A stretch of DNA of 56,181 nt from IMG/VR virus record IMGVR_UViG_2565956618_000007, one strand, 5' to 3'. The notes beneath the pieces were generated by a model. The model made no database searches. It was not told the origin of the DNA and saw only the letters and a list, made by a program, of their open reading frames with translations. Below are positions 6,155 through 8,981 of this stretch, piece by piece. Origin of the DNA: a virus (lineage: Duplodnaviria; Heunggongvirae; Uroviricota; Caudoviricetes). Each line of letters opens with the position of its first letter. The first letter of the stretch is position 1. The translations under genes and the position numbers were made by a program.

Positions 6155-6562
6155 TTATTTTATTGATTTATTTTTACGCGCTTTAAGCATTTCTTCGAAG
6201 AGTTTGTTGAAGTTTTCTACTCTTGCGCGCATTTCAGACAGCAAGGCTTCCTGCTCGGAAGATGGAAGAGCATCGAATAATTCGATCAATTCTTTGTGGT
6301 TGGGAGTTAGCTCTGTTTCCACATGAAGTTCTTGTGCAGGCACTGGTGCCTTGTCTTCGTCACCAAACATTAGCCATGTAGGTGAGCACTTCAGAGCATC
6401 CGCTAAAGCAAACAATCGTTTTCCGACTGGCTGGGTTTCGTCTCTTTCCCATTGTGAAATTGTGACGTGAGCAACTCCAGCGAGGCGCGCAGCTTCTCGT
6501 TGTGTTAAGCGTAATTCTTTTCGTCGCGCCAGAACTCGCTGGCCTAGGGTTCTTGTATCCAT
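6155..6562 (-). CDS. dicA: CI-type HTH repressor, DicA-like
   Basis: 135-aa ORF; HTH region (LTQREAARLAGVAHVTISQWE) and C-terminal …CSPTWLMFGDEDK…ELIELFDALPSSEQ…EMRARVENFNKLFEEMLKAR match remembered DicA; divergent from Cro-like gene. Confidence 0.85.
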   Translation of the reverse strand: MDTRTLGQRVLARRKELRLTQREAARLAGVAHVTISQWERDETQPVGKRLFALADALKCSPTWLMFGDEDKAPVPAQELHVETELTPNHKELIELFDALPSSEQEALLSEMRARVENFNKLFEEMLKARKNKSIK

Positions 6563-6584: not shown

Positions 6585-6629
6585 TTGACTTAGATATCCC
6601 GCGCACAATAATGTTAGAAAAGTCTAACA
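6585..6629 (+). promoter_or_regulatory. Rightward promoter (TTGACT-17 bp-ATAATG) overlapping operator palindrome TGTTAGA-N4-TCTAACA
   Basis: Near-consensus sigma70 -35/-10 with 17-bp spacer read directly; the palindrome overlaps the -10 and predicted start; located in the dicA-dicC intergenic region. Confidence 0.5.
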
Positions 6630-6642
6630 AGAGGGGGCTTTG

Positions 6643-6870
6643 ATGCTTAAAGTTGACGCAATTACTTTTTTTGGCAGCAAAACAAAGCTTGCCAATGCCG
6701 CAGGAGTGAGACTGGCAAGTGTTGCTGCTTGGGGGATACTGGTTCCTGAAGGTCGCGCGATGCGTCTACAGGAGGCATCTGGCGGGGAGCTTCTGTATGA
6801 TCCCAAGGTTTATGACGAATATCGTAAGACGAAGCGGGCGGGGCGGTTGAACAATGAAAATCACTCCTGA
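6643..6870 (+). CDS. dicC: Cro-like HTH protein, DicC-like
   Basis: ATG at 6643 preceded by RBS GAGGGGG; 75-aa product with …FGSKTKLANAAGVRLASVAAWG…PEGRAMRLQ… Cro/DicC-type signature; divergent from repressor. Confidence 0.8.
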   Translation: MLKVDAITFFGSKTKLANAAGVRLASVAAWGILVPEGRAMRLQEASGGELLYDPKVYDEYRKTKRAGRLNNENHS

Positions 6871-7375
6871 ACAGGCTCGTGAGGCTCTGGATGCCTGGAT
6901 ATGTCGACCAGGAATGACACAGGAGCAGGCGACGATATTAATCACTGAAGCATTCTGGGCTTTGAAAGAGCGCCCGAACATCGATGTTCAGCGTGTCACA
7001 GATGAAGGTGGCGCGGTTGATCAGCGAGCGCTTGGCGTTAATCGAGTGAAGATATTCGAACGCTGGAAGGCTATCGACACCAGGGATAAGCGTGAAAAGT
7101 TCACGGCGCTAGTGCCTGCAATTATGGAGGCTATCCGGATTAATGATTTCAGGTTGTATCGTGAAATTAGTGACGGAAAAAGCATCACGTACATGATCGC
7201 CGGGTTAAACAAAGAATATGGCGATGTGGTGGAGTCCGGACTGCTTTTTGCTGATCCTGCCGTAGTGGATCGTGAAACTGACGAACTTATAGAAAAAGCA
7301 ATTGCTTTCAAACTTGCGTATCGACAGCAATACCAACAAAAAGCTGGATGGAATTATGAGCCTTCTTTTTGCTGA
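6854..7375 (+). CDS. YdaT-like early-operon protein
   Basis: 173-aa ORF overlapping the end of the Cro-like gene; position matches ydaT-type genes after cro in Rac/Qin-like prophages; sequence assignment tentative. Confidence 0.55.
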   Translation: MKITPEQAREALDAWICRPGMTQEQATILITEAFWALKERPNIDVQRVTDEGGAVDQRALGVNRVKIFERWKAIDTRDKREKFTALVPAIMEAIRINDFRLYREISDGKSITYMIAGLNKEYGDVVESGLLFADPAVVDRETDELIEKAIAFKLAYRQQYQQKAGWNYEPSFC

Positions 7376-8321
7376 ACGCCCACTGGTTATAAACACACAG
7401 CTTGCGATGAAGATTGGCTTAAATGAAGCCATTGTGTTGCAGCAGTTGCATTACTGGTTGAGAGATACCAATTCCGGCATGGAATGTGATGGTGTTCGCT
7501 GGATTTACAACACAACGGAACAATGGCTGGAACAGTTCCCATTCTGGTCAGAGTCAACGTTAAAGCGCGCGTTTGCAAGTCTGAAAACGCTGGGGCTTTT
7601 GCGTTGTGAAAAGCTCAATAAATCAAAGCGCGATATGACCAATTTCTACACGATTAACTATGGGAGCGAGCTTTTAGATGATGGCAAATTGAGCGAATCC
7701 ATCGGTTCAAAATGCGCCGCTCCATCAGGTCAAAATGACACGATGGAAGAGGTCAAAATGAAACGCTCCATTGGTTCAAAACGACCCAATGTCATCGGGT
7801 CAAAATGGCCCGATGATCCTACAGAGAATACAACAGAGATTACTACAGAGAATAAAAACACTTTTCGTCCGGAAGCTTCGCAACCGGACCCGCAGACGGC
7901 TGAACAGGATTTTTTAATCCGGCACCCTGGCGCAGTTGTGTTTAGTGCGAAAAAACGCCAGTGGGGTAGCCAGGAGGATCTGGCGTGTGCGCAGTGGATA
8001 TGGGGGCGGATCGTGGGTCTCTACGAACAGGCCGCCAGTGATGATGGCGAGATCATGCGACCAAAAGAGCCTAACTGGACTGTCTGGGCCAATGATGTGC
8101 GCACAATGCGGATGCTGGATGGCAGAAGCCACAGACAAATTTGTGAAATGTTTGGTCGGGTACAGCGGGATCCATTCTGGGTAAAAAACATCATGAGCCC
8201 GTCAAAGCTCCGCGAAAAATGGGACGAACTGGTCATCCGCCTGGGGCGTTCACCTGTACAGCGTTGTGTTAATCATATTTCTGAACCGGATACAGAAATT
8301 CCGCCTGGTTTCAGAGGATAA
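7356..8321 (+). CDS. Phage replication initiation protein (O-like, iteron-containing; C-terminal DnaT-like region)
   Basis: ATG at 7356 (the 7302 start in the ORF track is TTG inside the upstream gene); N-terminal wHTH-like segment; internal repeated SIGSK/IGSK peptide motifs encoded by DNA iterons; position after cro-like genes. Confidence 0.7.
   Translation: MSLLFAERPLVINTQLAMKIGLNEAIVLQQLHYWLRDTNSGMECDGVRWIYNTTEQWLEQFPFWSESTLKRAFASLKTLGLLRCEKLNKSKRDMTNFYTINYGSELLDDGKLSESIGSKCAAPSGQNDTMEEVKMKRSIGSKRPNVIGSKWPDDPTENTTEITTENKNTFRPEASQPDPQTAEQDFLIRHPGAVVFSAKKRQWGSQEDLACAQWIWGRIVGLYEQAASDDGEIMRPKEPNWTVWANDVRTMRMLDGRSHRQICEMFGRVQRDPFWVKNIMSPSKLREKWDELVIRLGRSPVQRCVNHISEPDTEIPPGFRG
7704..7809 (+). 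repeat. Five iterons GGT(T/C)CAAAA(T/C)G at 22-26 bp spacing inside the replication gene, followed by AT-rich ACAGAGAATA direct repeats: candidate ori
   Basis: Copies start at about 7704, 7728, 7751, 7773 and 7799; arrangement mirrors lambda ori inside gene O (iterons followed by an AT-rich segment). Confidence 0.6.
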
Positions 8322-8361
8322 GTTTTGATTTCAGGTCATGAGGTAATTTTAAGGGGGACTT

Positions 8362-8763
8362 GTGGCAAAAGTTTTTACACAAGAAGAGCGGGAAAAAATT
8401 AAAGGGCAGGTGGTGGAACTCGTGCGCCAGAGCGGTCGTGAGACGTTACGGCAACTGGAAGCTAAAACAGGTGCGACTAGATATCTGATGAGCGTTCTTG
8501 CCAGAGAGCTGGTAGCCAGTGGCGATGTATACAACTCCGGCTACGGGTTATTCCCGTCTGAACAGGCGCGTAAGGACTGGCAAAACGCCCGCAAAAAACT
8601 CTCGAGGGCAAAGGTGAAGAAAACAGCTGTGGTTGATCCGGACCTTATCTGGTCGTTACCTGATGGAGAAATACGTCGCTACGACAGTCGCCTAAACATA
8701 ATCTGTCGCGAGTGCCGGATGAGTGAAGTTATGCAGCGCATACTGGCATTTTATCAGGGATAA
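8362..8763 (+). CDS. Hypothetical protein (GTG start)
   Basis: 133-aa ORF with RBS AAGGGGG 5 nt upstream of GTG; basic, possibly DNA-binding; no family recognised. Confidence 0.55.
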   Translation: MAKVFTQEEREKIKGQVVELVRQSGRETLRQLEAKTGATRYLMSVLARELVASGDVYNSGYGLFPSEQARKDWQNARKKLSRAKVKKTAVVDPDLIWSLPDGEIRRYDSRLNIICRECRMSEVMQRILAFYQG

Positions 8764-8981
8764 TGTTAGGTATTTTAGACGTTACTAGATTAAAAAGCAT
8801 TAGTTCAGGAGTGAATTGACATTCTCATTTTTCATGGCACAGGGTAGATCTGGCGTGGTTGTCCGCTTTGTGCCAAAAGCGGACATCGAATAATTTCAGC
8901 AGCACTCAACCTTATTAACCAAATCGCCTCAACTCATATGGACATGCATCCGGAAGTGCCAACTTCGTAAACTTATTCACT

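Follow-up and report, generated by a model that had tools for sequence, protein, structure and literature searches.

Organization of the locus

The window, i.e. the whole stretch of viral DNA of 56,181 nt that was analysed here, carries a gene for an O-like replication initiator. As in lambda, the gene lies after cro- and cII-like genes and before a ren-like gene, which is followed by a DUF4209 gene on the reverse strand (Table 1). The initiator-gene region was 100% identical in E. coli ATCC 25922 and in numerous further strains. The ATCC 25922 copy sits in a Qin-like lambdoid prophage adjoining rspB, and the same CDS is labelled there as a hypothetical protein by RefSeq. Of 5426 complete E. 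coli genomes, 3908 contain DNA similar to the region and 1746 have most of it, and the locus belongs to a very common E. coli prophage family. Furthermore, the same module is present at ~97% identity in the Escherichia phages HannyBb, mEp460_ev081 and PhiR42_1. These are viable phages, which is counted in favour of a replication origin at this locus. Such an origin would give the gene a function and would place the origin of a common E. coli prophage family. No helicase loader or helicase gene (P-, DnaC- or DnaB-like) was found in the replication module or in the annotated ATCC 25922 prophage region, from integrase through lysis genes.

Table 1. Genes, protein domains and repeats at the initiator locus (positions in the window).
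Feature	Position	Strand	Sequence or pattern	Basis or remark
cI-like repressor (HTH_3)	6155-6562	-
pR-like sigma-70 promoter, upstream of cro-like gene	6585-6612	+	TTGACT-16-AATAAT	consensus scan, 10/12 matches
P22-Cro-like gene	6640-6870
CII/YdaT-like gene	6854-7375
Replication initiator gene, O-like, 321 aa, 966 nt	7356-8321	+		ORF; phrog_391 match 3e-92
N-terminal putative origin-binding domain, aa 1-108 (predicted winged helix-turn-helix)	7356-7679	+
Iteron 0, degenerate, in register	7677-7699	+	GATGATGGCAAATTGAGCGAATC	repeat search
Interdomain linker coding, aa 109-178, predicted disordered, houses the putative origin	7680-7889	+		pLDDT ~25
Iteron 1	7700-7722	+	CATCGGTTCAAAATGCGCCGCTC	repeat search and core pattern
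Iteron 2	7723-7745	+	CATCAGGTCAAAATGACACGATG	repeat search and core pattern
Iteron 3	7746-7768	+	GAAGAGGTCAAAATGAAACGCTC	repeat search and core pattern
Iteron 4	7769-7791	+	CATTGGTTCAAAACGACCCAATG	repeat search and core pattern
Iteron 5, best palindrome	7793-7815	+	CATCGGGTCAAAATGGCCCGATG	inverted repeat and core pattern
Three 12-bp repeats	7819-7857	+	(T)ACAGAGA(A/T)TAC	repeat search, TRF
C-terminal domain, lambda O C-terminal homologue (predicted helical)	7890-8258	+
C-terminal tail, resembles host DnaT C-terminus	8259-8318	+	QRCVNHISEPDTEIPPGFRG
DUF977/Ren-like gene, directly after initiator gene	8362-8763

Iterons within the initiator gene

The initial annotation had proposed five copies of GGT(T/C)CAAAA(T/C)G, spaced 22-26 bp apart and followed by an AT-rich repeat segment, all inside the coding sequence. 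Repeats, whose absence would have spoken against this claim, were present on close inspection: the repeat search returned five 23-nt units (7700-7815) with start-to-start distances of 23, 23, 23 and 24 bp, and TRF gave a period of 23 for the array. The number of copies thus stood, and the open reading frame contains both the iterons and the 12-bp repeats behind them. The written consensus did not hold, being exact in only two copies, and the measured spacing was 23-24 bp. With one mismatch allowed, GGTYCAAAAYG gave 4 matches vs 4.95 expected; it was therefore not above chance and was replaced by GKTCAAAAYG. This better core, G(G/T)TCAAAA(T/C)G, had exactly five matches in the window, all on the + strand (7705, 7728, 7751, 7774 and 7798), when 0.69 were expected by shuffling and none of 100 shuffles reached five.

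The iteron unit is an imperfect 23-bp palindrome around an A-tract, close to CATCGGGTCA-AAA-TGACCCGATG. Upstream of the five good units there is a degenerate one (iteron 0), at a position where relatives have a good iteron; the six units and the 12-mers together span 7677-7857. In some E. coli alleles (P0018 type, 290 aa) exactly 31 codons are missing. The 93 bp lost equal four units, which is what recombination between iterons would be expected to remove. DnaA boxes were at chance level in the window (four), with none in the putative origin and no cluster near the gene; the missing cluster is a point against the origin reading. A search of 7000-8800 against Rfam gave no RNA family, and a reading of the repeats as an RNA element was dropped on this ground. 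Literature searches for motif strings such as ACAGAGATTAC and GTCAAAATGAC returned only unrelated primer or sequence matches.

The 12-mer element downstream of the iterons

Directly downstream of the repeats lies a strand-asymmetric A+T-rich segment, as a lambda-type origin requires, with a GC content of 0.30 and an AT skew of +0.57 over 7820-7859. The AT-rich segment of the initial annotation was thus found, with three 12-bp repeats in it, and proved to be more than merely AT-rich: it is a specific, deeply conserved 12-mer element. The segment is the least stable 40-mer of the initiator gene (-44.6 kcal/mol vs a mean of -54.8, SD 3.6), and its instability ranks at the 98.8th percentile of the whole window. 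On the other side, it is only moderately AT-rich (69% A+T), which counts against reading the locus as an origin. Among the relatives described below, 42 of 51 loci had their first CAGAGA motif 18-21 nt past the core of the last iteron. The 12-mers were nearly identical as DNA across the lineages compared, from Enterobacterales to Clostridia, and one allele had a fourth 12-mer. We propose that the 12-mers are an element for unwinding and helicase loading, a role that we infer from their position, stability and conservation.

Conservation as DNA or as peptide

Since the repeats lie in a coding sequence, they could be a by-product of a repetitive low-complexity linker (SIGSK..., TENTTEITTEN) with no function as DNA. 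Three of the iterons and all three 12-mers do share one frame, and the visible peptide repeats fall within a linker that is predicted to be disordered. However, iterons 1-5 fall in frames 2, 1, 0, 2 and 2. With a 23-bp period the units are spread over all three frames, so that (S/V)IGSK is encoded by only three copies (7700, 7769 and 7793); the matching peptide repeats that had been noted at the outset are therefore real in three of the five iterons and missing from the other two, which are read in other frames.

Diversity pointed in the same direction. Among 55 distinct close alleles, third-codon-position diversity was 0.083 and 0.133 in the N- and C-terminal domains, respectively, whereas the iterons had only 0.013 and the 12-mers 0.002, so that synonymous-site diversity was 6 to 50 times below that of the flanking domains. 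Codon choice was compared in 62 related genes that ranged from 0.31 to 0.62 in GC content, and in the 12-mer zone it was frozen over this whole range: GAG made up 99% of Glu codons vs 44% elsewhere, and ACA/ACT 98% of Thr codons vs 44% elsewhere. In the same genes, 13 copies of the CAGAGA motif were read in a different frame, and 12-mer spacings of 11 or 13 bp shifted the frame within one gene. Moreover, the palindromic arms of the iterons covary symmetrically (see below), which the peptide explanation would not account for. Frames, diversity and codon choice all point to DNA: the repeats are kept as DNA and not as peptide, and the linker protein tolerates whatever the DNA element dictates. 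A peptide by-product is already strongly disfavoured, and we give it hardly any weight.

The initiator protein

The initiator matched phrog_391 ('replication initiation O-like') and is a chimera of a predicted RepA_N-like winged helix at the N-terminus, a lambda-O C-terminal domain and a DnaT-like tail. Searches of Pfam and NCBIfam gave no family match to the protein except for 20 residues of the DnaT end, and a sequence search of the PDB returned nothing meaningful. The N-terminal domain had no Pfam match even at E<=10, RepA_N (PF06970) included; in the same run lambda O was matched by PF04492 at 5.7e-36. Aligned with hhalign to the N-terminus of lambda O, the domain showed no profile similarity (probability 0.1), in what was a weak test with a shallow profile. 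Its family is large, with 10,315 clusters at 50% identity (E<=1e-3). In the predicted structure the domain had a DnaD/RepA_N-like winged-helix fold, the closest being that of a plasmid RepA_N initiator. The AlphaFold2 model, built with 12 closely related sequences, had a mean pLDDT of 53, and with a model this weak overall both the fold match and the assignment of a 'recognition helix' are provisional.

For the C-terminal domain, BLASTP aligned residues 147-294 with residues 135-270 of lambda O (34% identity over 148 aa, E 3e-27); the first aligned residues are those that the last iteron encodes. The tail agreed with the C-terminal 20 residues of E. coli DnaT at 14 of 20 positions, reading SEPDTEIPPGFRG here, and it matched positions 160-179 of the NCBIfam DnaT model. 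Most relatives in Enterobacterales had tails of the IPxGFRG type, irrespective of which C-terminal domain they carried, and other tails were found in Firmicutes. The tail suggests how phages that have no helicase loader tap the replication-restart proteins of the host. The papers on DnaT structure that were consulted assign no partner to the extreme C-terminal tail, and for DnaT residues 154-179 they describe only a modest effect on the cooperativity of ssDNA binding.

Relatives, modularity and covariation

A scan with the N-terminal domain of contigs from one genome per species gave 248 confirmed loci. In most of the best 80 of these 248, which were the ones examined, a periodicity of 22-24 bp starts ~310-340 nt past the start codon. 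At least 53 of 85 examined loci had three or more units of 22-24 bp with a CAAAATG-like centre. These 53 came from Enterobacterales, Pseudomonas, Acinetobacter, Comamonas, Caedibacter, Lactobacillales and Clostridia, with some contigs taken from metagenome bins and taxon labels that may be unreliable. In about one third of the distant relatives a simple detector gave no clear array, which counts against the origin reading. This origin design recurs in thousands of phage initiators from many bacterial phyla. As a practical matter, origins could be annotated from 23-bp CAAAATG-centred palindromes with CAGAGAnTAC 12-mers behind them, in the thousands of phages, prophages and phage-plasmids for whose initiators Pfam has no model.

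By comparison of both DNA and protein, the N-terminal domain is exchanged together with the iterons and 12-mers as a single unit, whose breakpoint directly follows the 12-mers. Beyond this breakpoint the C-terminal domain is swapped, being either of the lambda-O type or Phg_2220_C.

The arms of the iterons are palindromic and lineage-specific (GGT..ACC, GGG..CCC, GTG..CAC, GGA..TCC and TAT..ATA). The bases at -1 and +1 of the core were complementary in 48 of 53 locus consensuses (34 T/A, 13 G/C). Of all columns in the N-terminal domain alignment, residue 67 had the highest mutual information with this flanking base (1.22 of 1.28 bits, statistics that ignore kinship). It was Asp in all 13 G-type loci and in no T-type locus, where it was mostly Ser. 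By the predicted fold, a model of moderate quality, residue 67 lies at the beginning of helix 2 in the winged helix-turn-helix (H66-78). Such covariation would be the expected signature of a dimeric protein that reads symmetric half-sites, and it offers a testable recognition code for these initiators.

Two plasmid records with the N-terminal domain were phage-like circular records without replicon typing.

Comparison with known origins

That the origin lies inside the initiator gene is a well-known, textbook arrangement, and the textbook picture of iteron origins is unchanged by our results. For example, the repeats of P22 and L are inside gene 18, as those of lambda are inside O (PMC8022706). 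The four annotated iterons of ori-lambda, of the form ATCCCTCAAAACGAGGGA, are spaced by 20, 24 and 23 bp in the middle of gene O, with an A-rich stretch next to them. The present locus likewise has its putative origin in the middle of the initiator gene, with an A-rich segment of low stability after the repeats. Both have four to six dyad-symmetric repeats of ~20-23 bp with a TCAAAA(C/T)G-type A-tract centre, and in both the N-terminal/ori module is exchanged by recombination independently of the C-terminal one. However, the N-terminal domain is not PF04492, the units are of 23 bp vs 18-19 bp, 12-mers in an ordered set make up the A-rich segment, and there is neither a P gene nor a helicase gene such as gene 12 of P22. 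The DnaT-like tail is also absent from lambda O. The lambda O/ori arrangement named in the initial annotation is thus borne out by layout, C-terminal domain and gene order, and fails for the N-terminal family and the P gene.

The second system to compare is that of the RepA_N initiators, such as RepA of pSK41 and pTZ2162 and RepA of the V. cholerae PLE. In pSK41 the ori is central in the rep gene and encodes a dispensable linker; the iterons of this group are semi-palindromic and converge on a poly-A tract, and the C-terminal domain is host-specific (PMC5703833, PMC7145576). We found the same here: semi-palindromic A-tract iterons central in the gene and encoding a linker, and a C-terminal region that varies with the host. 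The differences are that this is a phage and not a plasmid, and that the C-terminal domain is of the lambda-O type. In the literature covered, we found no description of a conserved 12-mer element for RepA_N origins. The locus combines features of lambda and RepA_N, and by sequence it is a member of neither N-terminal family.

The 12-mers also resemble the 13-mers of oriC and the corresponding repeats of RK2 and F, in that three short direct repeats make up a strand-asymmetric segment of low stability adjoining the initiator array. They differ in that their sequence is unrelated and that they lie inside a coding sequence. In the oriC, RK2 and F systems the initiator also binds one strand of the unwinding repeats (PMC4081077, PMC10602881).

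A candidate replication origin and how it may work

Taken together, 7677-7857 is very probably the vegetative replication origin of the Qin-like lambdoid prophage, placed centrally in its own initiator gene, where the linker is encoded. An origin inside the initiator gene, as first proposed from the letters of this DNA, is supported computationally by the O-like match, the ori-lambda layout, the selection at DNA level and the covariation of the iterons with the N-terminal domain; the last two support an origin that is bound by the initiator.

Alternatively, the iterons might bind the initiator and yet serve in control, with the true origin elsewhere in the prophage. Plasmid iterons also act in copy control and handcuffing, and cloned copies of ori-lambda interfere with phage growth (PMC5397158 and PMC4488673, respectively). 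However, the array here is at a fixed distance from a conserved element of low stability, its position and architecture equal those of the annotated ori-lambda and of the pSK41 ori (PMC5703833), the iteron core occurs nowhere else in the window, and no cluster of DnaA boxes is near the gene. We therefore regard a purely regulatory role as improbable.

In the origin that we favour, dimers of the N-terminal winged helix would bind the five or six 23-bp palindromic A-tract iterons, and the helix from residue 66 would read the bases adjoining the CAAAATG core. Binding may build a bent nucleoprotein complex, in the manner of the lambda O-some, and this complex would then destabilise the adjoining CAGAGAnTAC 12-mers as the site of unwinding and helicase entry. 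Binding, unwinding and firing of the origin are what we infer from these sequence comparisons. By analogy with lambda pR, the pR-like promoter would drive rightward transcription through the origin, and this probably helps the opening. In lambda, transcription helps to open the origin.

Since the phage has no gene for P, DnaC or DnaB, we propose that recruitment of the host DnaB-DnaC/primosome is direct, through the DnaT-like tail and the C-terminal domain of lambda-O type. With no gene for a helicase loader, the route of loading is conjecture: it could be direct recruitment of DnaB-DnaC or entry through PriA-PriB-DnaT. The second route leads to an origin that does not work in the manner of lambda. 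There the initiator would open or remodel the 12-mers, giving a D-loop, R-loop or fork-like structure, on which the PriA-PriB-DnaT restart primosome acts. The DnaT-like tail would then plug the initiator into the pathway in place of DnaT, with no direct delivery of DnaB-DnaC. The 14 of 20 identical residues at the end of the protein, the missing loader gene and the IPxGFRG tails that are kept in most Enterobacterales relatives and replaced in Firmicutes speak for this route. So does the RepA_N/DnaD-like fold, which would tie the protein to primosome proteins (PMC5703833). Against it, the function of DnaT residues 154-179 is undefined in the literature covered beyond the modest effect on ssDNA binding, and the C-terminal domain is lambda-O-like. 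In lambda, the C-terminal domain of O works through P. On balance, we consider the restart route rather unlikely, though a serious candidate, and keep to direct recruitment by the C-terminal domain and tail as our working proposal.

What was less expected in our results is the depth of 12-mer conservation, the simple covariation of residue and base, and a DnaT-like tail in an initiator without a loader. No description of these three was found in the searchable literature, a body in which key older reviews are not covered. A broader picture may also be drawn, of which, as a whole, we are less than half convinced. The window would be one example of an origin design that crosses phyla and is undescribed as far as we could find, built on an un-modelled RepA_N/DnaD-like winged-helix family of ~10,000 clusters at 50% identity. 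It would join 23-bp A-tract palindromic iterons to phased CAGAGAnTAC 12-mers 18-21 nt downstream. The 12-mers would be a sequence-specific element for unwinding and helicase entry, and members from Enterobacterales would be 'initiator-solo' replicons, gaining access to the host restart primosome by mimicry of the DnaT tail. The A-rich region of ori-lambda would in turn be a degenerate version of the 12-mers. In a loose alignment, the lambda A-rich region could be set against the 12-mer zone (ACAAAAGACACTATTACA against ACAACAGAGATTACTACA), a weak hint that the two may be related.

Repeats of the probable origin and alleles lacking iterons

The 12-mers (CAGAGAnTAC repeats) were found inside the initiator genes of relatives as well. 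In the loci L001-L085, they occurred in 2-5 copies, mostly with a period of 12, at about +440 to +530 nt of the gene, and their DNA was nearly identical from Enterobacterales to Lactobacillales and Clostridia. The distance from the last iteron core to the 12-mers was 18-21 nt in 42 of 51 loci, and one relative (L007, gene of 978 nt) had one 12-mer more. Our literature search found no paper listing the CAGAGAnTAC motif.

Initiators P0018-P0023 from E. coli (290-308 aa) lacked exactly 31 codons relative to window 7700-7792; the missing 93 bp corresponded to four iteron units (23+23+23+24), and one good iteron was retained. Judged from these sequences, they are probably ori-deletion variants generated by iteron-iteron recombination, and the prophages carrying such alleles are possibly replication-dead.

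The A-rich segment of ori-lambda (L005 1120-1185) aligned loosely with the 12-mer zone (window 7816-7870), ACAAAAGACACTATTACA against ACAACAGAGATTACTACA, followed by TTCGTC. Furthermore, the inverted repeat on the right side of ori-lambda included CAGAGAAT and a near-complement of it. These features hint that the two origins have an ancestry in common past the C-terminal domain.

Initiator domains and neighbouring genes

Features of the initiator and its surroundings
Feature	Window position	Strand	Remark
N-terminal domain	7356-7685	+	large family without Pfam model
DnaT-like tail QRCVNHISEPDTEIPPGFRG	8259-8318 (aa 302-321)	+	likeness to DnaT C-terminus
DUF4209 gene, 595 aa	8982-10769	-	between replication module and hokD/rem region of prophage

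The family of the N-terminal domain, for which Pfam has no model, comprised 10,315 clusters (50% identity) at E<=1e-3 and 4,535 at E<=1e-10. Some members (400-880 aa) had two tandem copies, and the domain was also present on phage-like circular 'plasmid' records of Bacillus, Lactobacillaceae and Clostridium.

At the other end of the protein, the tail and the final 20 residues of E. coli DnaT had the same amino acid at 14 of 20 positions. Most Enterobacterales relatives ended in an IPxGFRG-type tail, including those with another C-terminal domain, whereas Firmicutes relatives had acidic/aromatic tails in its place (for example, EEDFRFDDET). This division of tail types suggests, at the sequence level, that the tail may be a host-specific docking peptide.

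The DUF4209 gene was inserted there in reverse orientation. Since phage HannyBb had no such gene at the corresponding position, the insert appears to be a moron or a candidate for defence cargo. Upstream, the end of the CII/YdaT-like gene overlapped the initiator start by 20 nt in a different frame (window 7356-7375). In the database entries P0002-P0004 (448 aa, with PF06254) these two ORFs were fused, presumably via frameshifts or alternative gene calls.
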